Shown here piece after piece: positions 1 to 33,585 of a stretch of DNA of 64,000 nt (position 1 is its first letter; every line of letters starts with the position of its first letter). Made by a program: the position numbers and the translations under genes. Under the pieces are notes generated by a model, which was not told the DNA's origin, did not search any database, and saw only the letters and a program-made list of their open reading frames with translations. Origin of the DNA: Acutalibacteraceae bacterium (GTDB taxonomy: Bacteria; Bacillota; Clostridia; Oscillospirales; Acutalibacteraceae). The stretch spans positions 46,341-110,340 of the forward strand of contig JAZQGF010000005.1 in NCBI GenBank assembly GCA_045539875.1. Direction: 5' to 3'.

Positions 1-123
1 CAACGGTTCCCCAAAATCAAATATAAAAAGCGGATACTTTATTTATAATGTATCAATACGGGTGGCACCGCGGGTATAATAACTCGTCCCGGGAATTTCA
101 TTGGAAATTCCCGGGACTTTTTG
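1..123 (+). promoter_or_regulatory. T-box riboswitch leader (3' part): T-box antiterminator and terminator
   Basis: GGTGGCACCGCG at 61-72, followed by the hairpin GTCCCGGGAATTTC...GAAATTCCCGGGAC and a T run, directly upstream of aspS. Stem I and the specifier probably lie before the window. Confidence 0.9.
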
Positions 124-165
124 CATTATATATAATAGGTAAACACCTGATGGAGGTATGATAAA

Positions 166-2274
166 ATGTACAGAACTCATCGATGCAACGAAATAAGAGA
201 GAGCCACATCGGGCAGAGAATCGAGCTTGCCGGATGGGTAGATGTTATCCGTGACCACGGCGGCGTTCTTTTCGTTGACCTGCGCGATGAAACAGGCGTA
301 ACACAGGTTGTTGTTCACGACGAAAATCTCGTTAAGGGCATCAGCAAAGAAACGGTTATTTCCGTTTCGGGCGTTGTTACAAAGCGCGACGAAAGCACGG
401 TTAACCCCAAAATTGAAACCGGTCTTGTTGAGCTTGTTGCTGATAAGCTCGATGTTCTCGGCGTATGCAGCAGAGATCTTCCTTTTGAAATCGGTTCAAA
501 CGACACAAACGAAAACATTCGCCTTAAGCACAGATTCCTCGACCTGAGAAATCCCGAGCTTCACAAAAATATTCTTCTTCGTTCGAAGGTTATCGGCCAC
601 ATGAGAAAGCTCATGGAGGAGAGAGGTTTCCTTGATATTCAGACCCCAATCCTCACCGCATCCTCACCCGAAGGCGCAAGAGACTTCCTTGTTCCCAGCC
701 GTAAGCATCCGGGCAAGTTCTATGCTCTTCCGCAGGCACCTCAGCAGTTCAAGCAGCTGCTCATGGTTTCGGGCTTCGATAAATACTATCAGATTGCTCC
801 CTGCTTCAGAGATGAAGATGCCCGTGCCGACCGTTCACCCGGCGAATTCTATCAGCTCGACTTTGAAATGGCATTCTCAACTCAGGATGAAGTTCTTGAG
901 GTTTGCGAAAGCGTAGTAAGCGATATTTTCAAAACCTTCTCGGATAAGAAGGTCACAGAATCCCCCTTCAGACGCATTCCTTATGCCGAGGCAATGGCAA
1001 AATACGGTTCGGATAAGCCCGACCTTCGCAACCCCCTTATCATCTGCGACCTTACCGATATGTTCAAAAGAGTTCAGTTCAAGCCCTTTATGAATAAATT
1101 TGTAAGAGCAATCGTTGCACCCTGCAAAAACGAAAGATGGTTCTTTGATAAGTCACTTGCTTTTGCAACAAAGCAGGCAAAGATGGCAGGTCTTGCACAC
1201 ATCACTCTTCTTGATGCCGCAAACTACGGATTCAAGGATGACCCCATCAGCAAGGTTATGACCGAAGAAGAAAAGAGAGAAATCGTTGAGCTGACAGGCG
1301 TTAAGGAAGGAGAAACAATCTTCTTCATCTGCGATAACATCGCCGATGTTGCCGATAAGAACGCAGGCGTTATCCGCACATGGCTCGGCAATGAGCTTGA
1401 TCTCATAAAGAACGATTCATTTGAATTCTGTTTTGTTGTTGACTTCCCCATGTATGAGCGCGATGAAACAACAGATAAAATTATCTTTACTCACAACCCG
1501 TTCTCAATGCCTCAGGGCGGACTTGACGCACTTGAGAACATGGATCCCTGCGAGATTCTTGCATATCAGTATGACCTTGTCTGCAACGGCATCGAGCTTG
1601 CTTCGGGTGCTGTAAGAAACCACAGCCCCGAAATCATGCGCAAGGCATTTGAAATCGCAGGCTACAGCGAGGACGAGGTTGAAAGACGCTTCAGCGCTCT
1701 TTATAACGCATTCCAGTTCGGCGCACCTCCCCATGCAGGCATGGCACCCGGCGTTGACAGAATCATAATGCTTCTTGCAGACACCGAAACAATCAGAGAT
1801 GTTATTGCATTTCCGCTTGACGGCACAGCTCAGGACCAGATGCTCGGTGCACCCGGCGAAGTTACTGAGCTTCAGCTCTTTGAAGCAAATGTCAGCATAA
1901 GAGGCAAGGGCGGCAGCGTTGAGGTTGCAGGCGGCGAAAGCGACAATTCCGCATTCACCGCAACCGTTAACTCCGCAAAAGGCGGCGTTAAGACCAAGGA
2001 AGGCTGGCTCAAGGAGCTTGAAAGCGTAAATGAACTCAGCTTCACTGCCGACGAAAAGAAGAAAATGCAGAAGATTCTCGACATGATGGGTAAAAACGAA
2101 GCCGAGCTTGAAAAGACCGATACAGCAGATGTTGAGGCAATGGTTTATGTTATGCCCATGACCAATGTTCTCAGAAACGACGGCAGAAATCAGCCCTTTG
2201 CCCGTAAAGACCTGCTTGAAGGCGCTCCCCAGAGCACTGAGGACAGCTGGCAGGTTCCCAGACTCGTGAAGTGA
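166..2274 (+). CDS. aspS: Aspartate-tRNA(Asp/Asn) ligase with C-terminal GatC-like domain fused
   Basis: MYRTH start, RDHGG, EGARDFLVPSR, ALPQAPQQFKQLL, FRDED, PPHAGMAPGVDR. After a Gly/Ser linker there is a GatC-like tail (..TNVLRND..LLEGAP..QVPRLV). Confidence 0.95.
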   Translation: MYRTHRCNEIRESHIGQRIELAGWVDVIRDHGGVLFVDLRDETGVTQVVVHDENLVKGISKETVISVSGVVTKRDESTVNPKIETGLVELVADKLDVLGVCSRDLPFEIGSNDTNENIRLKHRFLDLRNPELHKNILLRSKVIGHMRKLMEERGFLDIQTPILTASSPEGARDFLVPSRKHPGKFYALPQAPQQFKQLLMVSGFDKYYQIAPCFRDEDARADRSPGEFYQLDFEMAFSTQDEVLEVCESVVSDIFKTFSDKKVTESPFRRIPYAEAMAKYGSDKPDLRNPLIICDLTDMFKRVQFKPFMNKFVRAIVAPCKNERWFFDKSLAFATKQAKMAGLAHITLLDAANYGFKDDPISKVMTEEEKREIVELTGVKEGETIFFICDNIADVADKNAGVIRTWLGNELDLIKNDSFEFCFVVDFPMYERDETTDKIIFTHNPFSMPQGGLDALENMDPCEILAYQYDLVCNGIELASGAVRNHSPEIMRKAFEIAGYSEDEVERRFSALYNAFQFGAPPHAGMAPGVDRIIMLLADTETIRDVIAFPLDGTAQDQMLGAPGEVTELQLFEANVSIRGKGGSVEVAGGESDNSAFTATVNSAKGGVKTKEGWLKELESVNELSFTADEKKKMQKILDMMGKNEAELEKTDTADVEAMVYVMPMTNVLRNDGRNQPFARKDLLEGAPQSTEDSWQVPRLVK

Positions 2275-4877: not shown

Positions 4878-4883
4878 ATATTA

Positions 4884-4922
4884 ATATGCCGACACAAAAT
4901 CTGTGTCGGCATATTTTATTTT
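4884..4922 (+). terminator. Intrinsic terminator
   Basis: ATATGCCGACACA-aaatc-TGTGTCGGCATAT followed by Ts after gatB. Confidence 0.8.
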
Positions 4923-30252: not shown

Positions 30253-31908
30253 TTATTTCCATGAAGATTTGAGGTCAACCGTTCTGTTGAAAACAAGCTT
30301 TTCATCGGTTGAAGTTTTATCAACGCAGAAATAGCCCTGTCTCATAAACTGGAAGGTATCGCCGCGTTTTGCATTGCCGATTCCGCCCTCAACAAGGCAA
30401 CCTTCAAGAATTTCAAGCGAAGCGGGGTTGAGATGAGTGAGATAGTTTTCTTTACCGTCTGCCATGGGGTTTTCGGCATTGAAAAGACGGTCATAAAGAC
30501 GGATTTCACAAGGAACACTGTCGTTACCGCTGACCCAGTGAATTGTGCCCTTAACCTTTCTGCCGTCGGGAGCTTCGCCGCCCTTGGTTTCGGGGTCATA
30601 GGTGCAGTGGAGGCAGGTGATTTCTCCGTTTTCATCGGTTTCCCAGCTGTTGCAGGTTACGAGATATGCGCTCTTGAGACGAACCTCGTTTCCGGGGAAG
30701 AGTCTGAAATATTTTTTCGGAGGCTCAACCATAAAGTCGTCACGCTCAACGAAAATTTCTCTTGAAAAATGAACGGTTCTTGTGCCGAGTTCGGGCTTGA
30801 GAGGATTGATTTCAACCTCAATTGCCTCTGTCTGACCTTCGGGATAGTTGTCGATAATAACTTTAAGAGGACGGAGAACAGCCATTGCTCTGGGAGCGTT
30901 CTCATTAAGATTATCTCTTACACAGGCTTCAAGCAGACCGTAATCAACAACGCTGTCTGCCTTTGAAACGCCGATGCGGTTTATGAATTCACGCACCGCA
31001 GCTGCAGGATATCCTCTTCTTCTCATACCGCTGAGAGTAATCATTCTGGGGTCATCCCAACCGTCAACGGTTCCATTCTGCACCATTGCAAGATTGTATC
31101 TCTTGCTGGTTACGCAGTAGTTGAGGTTAAGTCGAGCAAACTCAATCTGTCTGGGGGGCTCTTCAAAGCCGATTTCGTTGATAAACCAGTCATAAAGAGG
31201 TCTGTGATTTTCAAATTCAAGAGAGCAGAGTGAATAGGTTACGCCTTCCCTTGCATCCGAAAGAGGGTGAGCAAAGTCATACATGGGATATACGCACCAC
31301 TTATCGCCCGTCTGATGGTGAGTAACATGAGCAATTCTGTAGATAACAGGGTCACGCATATTGATGTTGGGCGATGACATATCAATCTTCGCACGCAGAG
31401 TTCTTTCGCCGTCTGCAAATTCACCTACCGTCATTCTTGCGAAAAGGTCAAGGTTTTCTTCAACCGAACGGTCTCTGTAGGGGCTGTTTTTGCCGGGCTC
31501 GGTGAGAGTGCCTCTGTATTCTCTGATTTCATCAGCAGAAAGGTCGCATACATATGCCTTGCCCTTCTTGATGAGCTTGATTGCGCATTCATAGATGAAA
31601 TCAAAATAGCTTGATGCATAAAGAACCTTGTTCCACTTGAAGCCAAGCCATTCGATATCCTCTTTTATCGCATCAACATATTCAACATCCTCTTTTGATG
31701 GGTTGGTATCGTCAAGACGGAGGTTGCATTCGCCGCCGTATTTCTCCGCTGTGCTGAAGTCAATGCAGATAGCCTTTGCATGACCGATGTGAAGATAGCC
31801 GTTGGGCTCGGGCGGGAAACGGGTCTGAACACGGGTGTTGACACCGGCAGCAAGGTCCTCATCAATAAAGTCATATATAAAATTTGAGGTGGTTTTAATT
31901 TCGTCCAT
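30253..31908 (-). CDS. glnS: Glutamine-tRNA ligase
   Basis: [42 protein letters not shown]. Confidence 0.97.
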
Positions 31909-31923
31909 GGTGGGTACTTCCTT

Positions 31924-33585
31924 TCAGTTTAAGCTTTCAAGTGTCTTTGTAAGTCTTGCCTTGATTTCATCTTCGCCGAGAAGATTCATTATTGAATAAA
32001 GGTCGGGAGTATTCTTTCTTGAGGTGAGGGCGATTCGGATAACGGTTGAAACATCGCCGACATGGCCCTTGAATGCCTCGGGATTCTTCTTATATTCCTT
32101 AACATTCGGAGTGAAGCCGAGAGGCTCGCACATATCCTTGATTCTTGCAAACCATTGGTCCTTATCGTCTGCAAGCGAGAATTCGCCGAGATATTTTTCG
32201 ATTATCGCCGCCGCGTCATCCTTTGAGATGTTTTCGGGCATGGTGTAATCGGGAGCATAAATCTCATTATAAAGATAAGAGAAATATTCCTTAACCTCGC
32301 TCCATTTTGCAATGTCTTTTCTGGGCTTGGGATTCTCTCTGTCAATGTTGACGGCAGCTGTTGAGAATTCGGGGTCTGCCGTAAAGAGATTATAAAACTC
32401 AGGGTCATAGACCTTTGCCCATTCGGCAATATTATCGTAAACCTGCTGAGCATTCATAACCGAGATAACATTCTTGCTGACATCGTTGAGCTTTACGAGG
32501 TCAAAAAGGCAGCCGCTGGAGCTCATCTTTTTGAGGTTGAAGGGGAATTTTGAGATATCCTCCTTCGGATTTGCTCTGCGCCAGTCCTCAAAGTTGGAGT
32601 TAAGAAGAGTGAGAAGATATTCAAGCACGCTCTCCTTCGGGAAGCCCTGCTCAAAGAAATAGCTGACTGCCGCTTCGGGATCTTTTCTCTTTGAAAGCTT
32701 GCGCTTGTCGCCTGTTTCTTCATCTATTTTGAGAACCTGCGGAGTATGCGCAAACTTCGGTAGCTTATAGCCGCAAACTCTGAAAAGCTCGATATGCTTG
32801 GGAACGGATGAAATCCATTCCTCGCCGCGGATAACATGAGTTGTTCTCATGTAGTGGTCATCGCAGGCGTGGGCGAAATGATATGTGGGAATTCCGTCGG
32901 ATTTGAGAAGAACCTCGTCAATTATGTTTTCGGGCATCTCGATTTTGCCTCTGATAACATCCTCGAAAACGATTTTTTTATCTTCGCTGCCGCCTGAACG
33001 CAGACGGAGCACCCAGGGCTTGCCGTCGGCTATATTCTTTTCGATTTCTTCATAAGAAAGATTGCGACATTTTGCCCATTTTCCGAAATAACCCCAGATA
33101 AGAGCGTCGCCCTGTTCCTGCTCCTTGCGAAGCTCGGAAAGCTCGTCCGCCGTGCAGAAGCAGGGATAAGCAACTCCCTTTTCAACAAGACTCTTTGCAA
33201 CAGTCTGATAAATCTCGGCACGCTTGCTCTGAGTGTAAGGTCCGTATGCGCCCTTTTCGGTTCCGAAGCCTGTTACGCCTTCGGTAAATTCAACGCCGAA
33301 ATAATCAAAGCCGTTGACGATTGCGGAAACGCCGTCATCAATTTCACGCTTTTTATCTGTATCCTCAATTCTGAGGAAGGAAACGCCGTTTGTTGTTTGA
33401 GCAGTCAGCACATCAACAAGAGCGCTGAAAAGTCCGCCGATATGGAGATAGCCTGTGGGCGACGGAGCAAATCTCGCTACTCTTGCACCTTCGGGGAGTC
33501 CTCTTTCGGGATAAATCTCCTCATAATAATCAGGAGTTTTGTCGATGTGAGGAAAAAGAAGCTCCGCTAATTTTTTATTATCCAA
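31924..33585 (-). CDS. gltX: Glutamate-tRNA ligase
   Basis: RFAPSPTGYLHIG, LRIEDTD, KLSKR; probable TTG start after GAGGTG. Confidence 0.95.
   Translation of the reverse strand: MDNKKLAELLFPHIDKTPDYYEEIYPERGLPEGARVARFAPSPTGYLHIGGLFSALVDVLTAQTTNGVSFLRIEDTDKKREIDDGVSAIVNGFDYFGVEFTEGVTGFGTEKGAYGPYTQSKRAEIYQTVAKSLVEKGVAYPCFCTADELSELRKEQEQGDALIWGYFGKWAKCRNLSYEEIEKNIADGKPWVLRLRSGGSEDKKIVFEDVIRGKIEMPENIIDEVLLKSDGIPTYHFAHACDDHYMRTTHVIRGEEWISSVPKHIELFRVCGYKLPKFAHTPQVLKIDEETGDKRKLSKRKDPEAAVSYFFEQGFPKESVLEYLLTLLNSNFEDWRRANPKEDISKFPFNLKKMSSSGCLFDLVKLNDVSKNVISVMNAQQVYDNIAEWAKVYDPEFYNLFTADPEFSTAAVNIDRENPKPRKDIAKWSEVKEYFSYLYNEIYAPDYTMPENISKDDAAAIIEKYLGEFSLADDKDQWFARIKDMCEPLGFTPNVKEYKKNPEAFKGHVGDVSTVIRIALTSRKNTPDLYSIMNLLGEDEIKARLTKTLESLN

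Follow-up and report, generated by a model that had tools for sequence, protein, structure and literature searches.

An aspS::gatC gene fusion upstream of a triad-less gatA: a putative covalently tethered Asn-transamidosome in Acutalibacteraceae

Introduction

What is gained when the enzyme that loads aspartate onto tRNA(Asn) is tied covalently to the amidotransferase that converts it to asparagine, and is such a tie connected with the loss of the glutaminase of that amidotransferase? This question is raised by a stretch of 64,000 nucleotides from a ruminant-gut Acutalibacteraceae bacterium (GenBank assembly GCA_045539875.1, contig JAZQGF010000005.1, positions 46,341 to 110,340 of the forward strand; hereafter the window), in which the genes for an aspartyl-tRNA synthetase (AspRS) and the amidotransferase subunit GatC form one open reading frame (ORF), aspS::gatC, followed by a gatA without catalytic triad and by gatB. 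Transamidosomes serve as the textbook example of how substrate channelling safeguards the genetic code; in those known so far, tRNA keeps the complex together, and stability varies widely from one to the next. An earlier note, made from the sequence of the window alone, had described the ORF as an AspRS-GatC fusion and proposed that it hard-wires the channelling of Asp-tRNA(Asn) to GatB and may have co-evolved with the dead GatA. Here, these proposals are followed up with profile searches, comparison of related loci and genomes, and phylogenetic trees.

Domain structure of the fusion protein

The aspS::gatC ORF (166-2274, plus strand) encodes 702 amino acids (aa) in a single frame without internal stop codon, and profile searches confirmed that it consists of an AspRS joined to GatC through a linker (Table 1). 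With 744.6 bits for NF001750 (bacterial aspartate--tRNA ligase, cut-off 443) and 605.6 bits for TIGR00459 (cut-off 373.85), both obtained on the fusion protein, the AspRS part passes the curated equivalog model for the bacterial-type enzyme. In 70 related loci, the start codon is likewise ATG.

That the last ~100 residues are GatC, as the earlier note had read from the translation, was borne out by PF02686 (31.3 bits for the whole protein and 35.0 bits for the last 123 aa, gathering score 23). Positions 6-92 of TIGR00135 align to residues 615-701 (E 6e-11, 42.4 bits), slightly short of the cut-off of that model. In addition, the tail can be aligned to Staphylococcus aureus GatC (2DF4_C) across 83 residues, and it is 53-60% identical to stand-alone GatC proteins of 93-94 aa from relatives with split genes. 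One of these (93 aa, 60% identical) reaches 56.1 bits with TIGR00135, above the cut-off of 47.1. The C-terminus of GatC is free in the fusion protein, and its C-terminal residues are invariant among relatives.

The linker lies where the note had placed it, and neither an in-frame stop codon nor an in-frame ATG, GTG or TTG was found in 1903-2001. The first in-frame ATG past AspRS is at nucleotide (nt) 2065 (Met634), within the GatC domain, and has no Shine-Dalgarno sequence. The statement that no separate gatC precedes gatA also held, and tblastn and Amidase family searches of the source assembly (3.0 Mb in 39 contigs, 88% complete and resembling a metagenome-assembled genome, MAG) found no other GatC, GatA or GatB. 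Small ORFs that overlap aspS::gatC in other frames or on the other strand look like chance frames.

Distribution of the fusion

A search with the tail returned 594 protein clusters; each of the 120 matches listed combines an AspRS with a GatC domain, with a length of 701-703 aa in almost every case. Species-representative genomes were also scanned with an alignment of the neighbouring GatA, and 80 loci were kept from the 365 genomes matched. They come from gut MAGs of goat, sheep, cattle, yak and deer labelled Acutalibacteraceae, Oscillospiraceae or Clostridia. AspRS and GatC are in one frame in 71 of the 80 loci; of the other nine, four have split genes, four are truncated by contig ends and one has a broken aspS. 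Relatives are thus far from always having split genes, a pattern that the earlier note had held would speak against its reading. A stop or frameshift in its AspRS part divides the broken frame (L084:2873-4981) into pieces of 479 and 212 aa; this may be a pseudogene or an assembly error. A search of 50%-identity representatives with the tail gave mostly short fragments and stand-alone GatC proteins and was uninformative on distribution.

Order of GatA inactivation and gene fusion

The GatA encoded next to the fusion is, as the earlier note had claimed, devoid of the Lys/cis-Ser/Ser glutaminase triad by which an Asn-transamidosome is recognized. All three residues are missing (the lysine is replaced by aspartate, the GGSSGG motif is lost and the nucleophilic serine is an alanine), and about 60 N-terminal residues are absent in alignment to Thermotoga maritima GatA (3AL0_A). 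The Lys to Asp change is common to all 80 related loci, every one of which has a dead GatA.

The proposed co-evolution of fusion and dead GatA stood only in part. It agrees with the fusion being present in 71 of 80 dead-GatA loci; against it, four species combine a dead GatA with a separate gatC, and five genomes combine an AspRS-GatC fusion with an intact GatA triad. In the four (L092, L097, L099 and L103), a gatC of 93-94 aa with its own ribosome-binding site starts 19-63 nt past the aspS stop codon. In the five (L012-L016, of which L016 is cut by a contig end), GatA is full-length, and AspRS is only ~40% identical to that of the window. Since both split dead-GatA species and live-GatA fusions exist, fusion and dead GatA are separable. 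Two further loci of the same family, L026 and L027, have a split aspS-gatC-gatA-gatB operon with a live GatA and an aspS 59% identical to that of the window.

The sequence of events was examined in trees, which are quick ones with Shimodaira-Hasegawa-like approximate likelihood ratio (SH-aLRT) support only. In the AspRS tree, the live-GatA fusions form a separate clade and the split, live L026 and L027 stand at the base of the clade of operon AspRS; within the dead-GatA clade, it did not discriminate between a single fusion and two (approximately unbiased, AU, test, p 0.42). A concatenated AspRS, GatA and GatB alignment (1446 columns, rooted on L026 and L027) put the split dead-GatA lineages at the base, as a paraphyletic group. 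Of two fused clades, X (L017, L019-L022, L101 and L104-L106) is sister to the split L097, and Y, which includes the window, stands apart from it, so that two state changes are needed on the tree. Monophyly of the fused members of the dead-GatA clade was rejected at a cost of 52.6 log-likelihood units (AU p 0.0008). The linkers of X, Y and the live-GatA fusion group have no similarity to one another; that of Y varies in sequence among relatives and keeps its length. In addition, the AspRS C-terminal motif EAN-V/I-SIR of Y is common to the split lineages, while X keeps the older-looking E-D/E-VH.

Given the basal, paraphyletic position of the split lineages and the rejected monophyly of the fused ones, GatA inactivation appears to have preceded the fusion. 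The simplest history is that GatA died first in an ancestor with split genes, and that AspRS-GatC fusions then arose independently in X and Y. With a third fusion in the live-GatA lineage, this history would give at least three origins in one bacterial order. This fits the idea that fusion is favoured where GatA is dead, and it is no demonstration of obligate co-evolution.

Synthetases and asparagine supply

The genome encodes a second, housekeeping AspRS, which is 39% identical to the AspRS of the fusion. The earlier note had pointed to the histidine in the RDHGG motif of the fusion, which we take to be the position of Pseudomonas aeruginosa His31; it is indeed present and is invariant in 32 of 32 operon AspRS of the clade, while the housekeeping enzyme reads RDLG, with leucine at this position. 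A histidine there is reportedly found in non-discriminating AspRS and a leucine in discriminating ones, as Bernard et al. 2006 are said to have described. Two bacterial-type AspRS were found in each of 17 compared genomes except G231, which is 47% complete. Based on these sequence features, the operon AspRS appears to be a second, dedicated copy of the tRNA(Asn)-accepting (non-discriminating) type, which would charge tRNA(Asn) with aspartate.

A GlnRS gene lies in the window (30259-31830, minus strand, 755 bits), and GlnRS was detected in 14 of 17 genomes that carry the operon; with GlnRS present, Gln-tRNA can be made without the amidotransferase. Just upstream of the GlnRS gene lies another class I match (32818-33477, minus strand), which is probably GluRS. 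AsnRS is present in the source genome, and searches of this 88%-complete genome for the asparagine synthetases AsnA and AsnB found neither. Among other carriers of the operon, AsnRS was not found in 10 of the 17 genomes, in 25 of 49 genomes of an overlapping set, or in any of eight clade-X or split dead-GatA genomes, and AsnB was found in none of six clade-X genomes examined. In the many operon-bearing genomes where no AsnRS was found, the machine with dead GatA must therefore be the working route to Asn-tRNA. Because of this role in genomes without detected AsnRS or AsnB, the dead GatA is best read as a scaffold and not as a sign of decay.

Two genomes with split genes and dead GatA, G311 and G313 (L092 and L099), have an AsnB-type asparagine synthetase while AsnRS was undetected; provided that both genomes are complete, direct charging of free asparagine would be impossible. 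Several close relatives (G303, G321, G322 and G310; loci L045, L036, L039 and L107) have two asnS-family genes. Both lie above the AsnRS cut-off in G303, G321 and G322 (~630 and 570 bits), and the second one of G310 is weak (244 bits). In G303, one AsnRS gene adjoins a partial AsnB-like gene.

Operon structure and T-box leader

The operon consists of a sigma-70 promoter, a T-box leader, aspS::gatC, the triad-less gatA, gatB and a terminator (Table 1). The start of gatA is 12 nt past the stop codon of the fusion, and that of gatB is 3 nt past gatA. As the window begins inside the leader, upstream DNA was included (locus L001). RF00230 matched the truncated leader with E 2.5e-6 and the whole leader with 43.9 bits (E 4.5e-8), both below its gathering score of 93. 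For the 5' half of the leader, the alignment given by Rfam was rejected, as it overlies the promoter and yields the wrong specifier. When 19 diverse leaders were aligned, AAC with a purine after it proved invariant (19/19) directly 5' of the basal helix, which itself covaries (GAAG/CUUC versus GGAG/CUCC). Since an invariant AAC stands next to a covarying helix, the T-box specifier is an Asn codon. The T-box contains UGGC, which is consistent with a G73 discriminator, and G73 is present in tRNA(Asn).

Table 1. Features of the aspS::gatC operon, with positions in the window unless noted
Feature	Position	Strand	Basis
Promoter TTGACA-17-TATAAT, perfect	-123..-95 (L001 1877-1905)	+	sequence reading
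T-box leader, 3' part (leader begins outside the window at ~-88)	1..126	+	RF00230
Conserved T-box sequence	~58-74	+	T-box 14-mer, read by eye, and leader alignment
Leader terminator hairpin, then T run	86-117	+	read by eye, and leader alignment
Shine-Dalgarno GGAGG and ATG start	152-156 and 166-168	+	sequence reading
AspRS part, residues 1-579	166..1902	+	NF001750, TIGR00459, Pfam
OB anticodon-binding domain, residues 20-97	223-456	+	PF01336, 51 bits
His31 of RDHGG motif	256-258	+	sequence reading
Class II catalytic core, residues 115-551	508-1818	+	PF00152, 372 bits
GAD insertion, residues 311-397	1096-1356	+	PF02938, 28 bits
Gly/Ser/Ala-rich linker, residues 580-612 (~33 residues)	1903..2001	+	ORF translation
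GatC domain, residues ~613-702, and stop codon	2002..2274	+	PF02686, TIGR00135
GatA-like subunit, 392 aa	2286..3464	+	PF01425, 174.8 bits; TIGR00132, 256 bits (cut-off 481)
GatB, canonical, 469 aa	3468..4877	+	NF004012, 557.6 bits (cut-off 338); GatB_N and GatB/YqeY tail
Intrinsic terminator closing the operon, 14-bp stem, then T-rich tail	4883..4915	+

Proposed mechanism

Taken together, the operon probably encodes an asparagine-starvation-induced, covalently tethered Asn-transamidosome with a second, tRNA(Asn)-type AspRS. GatC is known as a non-catalytic scaffold that is required for the folding of GatA and for the GatA-GatB complex (PMC2330236, PMC7541841). In the proposed machine, the C-terminus of AspRS would be tied through the flexible linker to the N-terminus of GatC, which would act as a belt holding GatA and GatB while its GatB-contacting C-terminal hairpin stays free. 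Each subunit of the AspRS dimer would then permanently carry one triad-less GatA (GatA*) and one GatB, giving a particle of the composition (AspRS-GatC)2(GatA*)2(GatB)2 that would need no tRNA as glue. When uncharged tRNA(Asn) accumulates, read-through of the T-box leader would lead to synthesis of the whole machine in fixed stoichiometry. AspRS would load aspartate onto tRNA(Asn), the acceptor end would swing over to the tethered GatB, and GatB would phosphorylate and then amidate the aspartate to asparagine. It is in this sense a reasonable inference that the fusion hard-wires the channelling of Asp-tRNA(Asn), as the earlier note had proposed.

Without glutaminase residues in GatA, free ammonia is the most likely nitrogen source. 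Sharing of GatCAB between two synthetases, where it also serves the Gln pathway, has been proposed to keep transamidosomes dynamic (PMC3367201). As GlnRS is present here, the amidotransferase need not be shared with the Gln pathway, and commitment of GatC to AspRS is affordable.

Several observations weigh against this reading. The GatC domain is divergent and stays below the cut-off of TIGR00135 (38.9 bits for the whole protein, 42.4 bits for the tail). An AlphaFold2 model of the single-chain fusion was poor (mean predicted local distance difference test score, pLDDT, of 55.6) and gave no geometric support; its input was a shallow alignment of 70 sequences, its catalytic core is unresolved, and the linker has a pLDDT of 31-40 within this overall poor model. 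The four dead-GatA species with a separate gatC manage without the tether, so that it is not essential. Finally, both assembled copies of tRNA(Asn) (G000:C1:66-141 and G000:C17:66-141, outside the window) have a G1-C72 pair. In characterized bacteria, this pair blocks recognition by GatCAB, for which U1-A72 is needed (PMC3367201, PMC4206432), and a G1-C72:U20A variant is likewise not recognized (PMC3367201; PMC4206432).

The acceptor stem varies across the dead-GatA clade. Among 55 genomes including the source, 24 have a G-type tRNA(Asn) and 11 a U-type, with one of these genomes (G321, L036) having both, and about 21 have neither; the closest relative (the genome of L028) has only the U-type, and two genomes in which no AsnRS was found have only the G-type. 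Either there are two tRNA(Asn) species, one of which is missed in MAGs, or GatB follows a relaxed acceptor-stem rule with specificity given by the tether. An extended form of the second reading, which we regard as unlikely, is that the tether took over part of tRNA identity: GatB would be freed of the need for U1-A72, the choice between tRNA(Asn) and tRNA(Asp) would be made by hand-over from the fused, dedicated AspRS, and the dead GatA would be only a scaffold for an ammonia-fed reaction. If this were true, the repeated fusions in the dead-GatA clade would be an adaptive response to slower or leakier amidation.

Alternative explanations

The fusion could be a selectively neutral by-product of operon compaction through loss of the aspS stop codon between two neighbouring, translationally coupled genes, with a GatC that functions normally and a tether that adds nothing to channelling or stability. 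With the short spacing between aspS and gatC in the split relatives, a small lesion suffices to join the two genes. The genes have remained separate in four species that share the dead GatA, and gatC stop-loss fusions arise readily in Mycobacterium smegmatis (PMC7541841). However, fusions that arose at least three times in one order were then kept across dozens of species with conserved linker length, and the tree is explained without any reversion. Repeated origins argue for selection, and we consider neutrality rather improbable, though still to be reckoned with.

A fusion protein that is made but works as two proteins, through linker cleavage or an internal start for GatC, is a considerably less probable alternative. 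The linker is flexible, of low complexity and variable, the kind of segment that is prone to proteolysis. No conserved cleavage motif is seen in the linker alignment, however, and between residue 580 and Met634, which is already in GatC, there is neither an in-frame ATG, GTG or TTG nor a Shine-Dalgarno sequence. In addition, independent lineages keep the long linker and regain no stop codon.

It is very unlikely that the operon no longer makes Asn-tRNA and has been recruited elsewhere, for example to regulation or other tRNA-linked chemistry. The loss of the triad and the truncated N-terminus of GatA, the divergent GatC, the G1-C72 tRNA(Asn) and the AsnRS in this genome would all fit such a change of function. 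Against it, GatB is fully canonical, the AspRS part passes its equivalog model and an Asn-specifier T-box stands over the operon in all lineages. In the many carriers without detected AsnRS, and in clade X with no AsnB in the six genomes examined, no other route to Asn-tRNA is visible. An artefact of sequencing or assembly, such as a missed stop codon or frameshift in the linker, has next to no probability even with a MAG-like source assembly in 39 contigs, because 71 independently assembled species genomes and 594 clusters share the architecture despite differing linkers.

Comparison with known systems

The machine proposed here resembles the non-covalent Asn-transamidosomes of Thermus thermophilus (3KFU), P. 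aeruginosa (4WJ3) and Helicobacter pylori (PMC3367201) in its parts, its two-step chemistry and its logic of retaining Asp-tRNA(Asn). Those complexes consist of separate proteins on a tRNA scaffold, and the non-discriminating AspRS and GatCAB of H. pylori do not associate without tRNA (PMC3367201). In the window, by contrast, GatC is covalently bound to AspRS, GatA has no glutaminase residues, and AspRS is a second, dedicated copy.

The AspRS-GatC architecture itself is already catalogued, since NCBIfam NF009460 (PRK12820), a bifunctional AspRS/GatC of ~720 aa, has the same domain order. The window protein does not reach the NF009460 cut-off of 1379; it scores 432.6 bits over profile positions 26-618, in the AspRS part only, and two other fusion lineages also fail (456-636 bits). 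A literature search for AspRS-GatC fusions, including the NF009460 type and the present lineage, found no paper in the collection that was searched.

The GatA of the aspS/gatCAB operon of Clostridium acetobutylicum is reportedly active. According to Saad et al. 2012 (J Biol Chem 287:20382), as cited in PMC4206432, this operon is controlled by a tRNA(Asn) T-box. In that account it is similar to the present one in placing an extra AspRS and an amidotransferase under a tRNA(Asn) T-box and in making asparagine on tRNA alongside an AsnRS, and it differs in that its genes are separate where those of the window are fused. In T. thermophilus and Deinococcus radiodurans, AspRS2 and GatCAB are the sole route to asparagine (PMC2330236, PMC4206432). 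The window genome is similar in having AsnRS, GlnRS and a second AspRS for tRNA(Asn), and AsnA and AsnB, absent there, were not found here; in contrast to AspRS2, its second AspRS is a bacterial-type enzyme that contains a GAD domain and is joined to GatC.

Among other fusions, a laboratory GatC-GatA fusion of M. smegmatis ties the C-terminus of GatC and raises errors (PMC7541841), whereas the fusion in the window is attached by the N-terminus of GatC, with a long linker in between. The GlnRS-YqeY protein of D. radiodurans is a natural synthetase fusion with a different partner domain (PMC1865053). The partner is also different in fungal ErdS, an AspRS-DUF2156 protein in which the Asp-tRNA made by the AspRS part is passed to the fused enzyme (PMC13219428).

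Long GatC frames were also observed in an order-wide sample of 301 genomes, 143 of which have GatC. Frames of 635-785 aa hold 12 of the GatC matches in this sample; the others are stand-alone. One of the 12 (L018) is not an AspRS-GatC but a GatC-GatA fusion: the frame L018:5788-7689 (plus strand, genome G006, same order) encodes 633 aa with GatC (72-139) followed by a full Amidase/GatA domain (174-615), and from its domain order looks like a natural GatC-GatA fusion. According to the account cited in PMC7541841, a survey of ~500 gatCAB loci contained no GatC-GatA fusion. In addition, the GatC matches at G105:C106:25690-25902, G129:C3:97388-97594 and G047:C88:1097-1303 fall in frames of 263-301 aa, a length between that of a normal GatC and that of an AspRS fusion, and may be other GatC fusions or extensions.

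Significance

To the catalogued architecture, the present analysis adds that fusion and dead GatA are separable, that GatA probably died first, and that the simplest history has at least three fusions in one order. It further adds the many carriers without a visible AsnRS and the puzzle of the tRNA(Asn) acceptor stem. A natural and recurrent link between AspRS and an amidotransferase offers structural and kinetic studies a stable complex that needs no engineering, and the fused and split sister lineages are a natural experiment on what tethering buys. Its association with a GatA incapable of using glutamine, in a group where no AsnRS was found in many genomes, bears on the question whether free ammonia can drive tRNA-dependent asparagine synthesis in the ammonia-rich gut.

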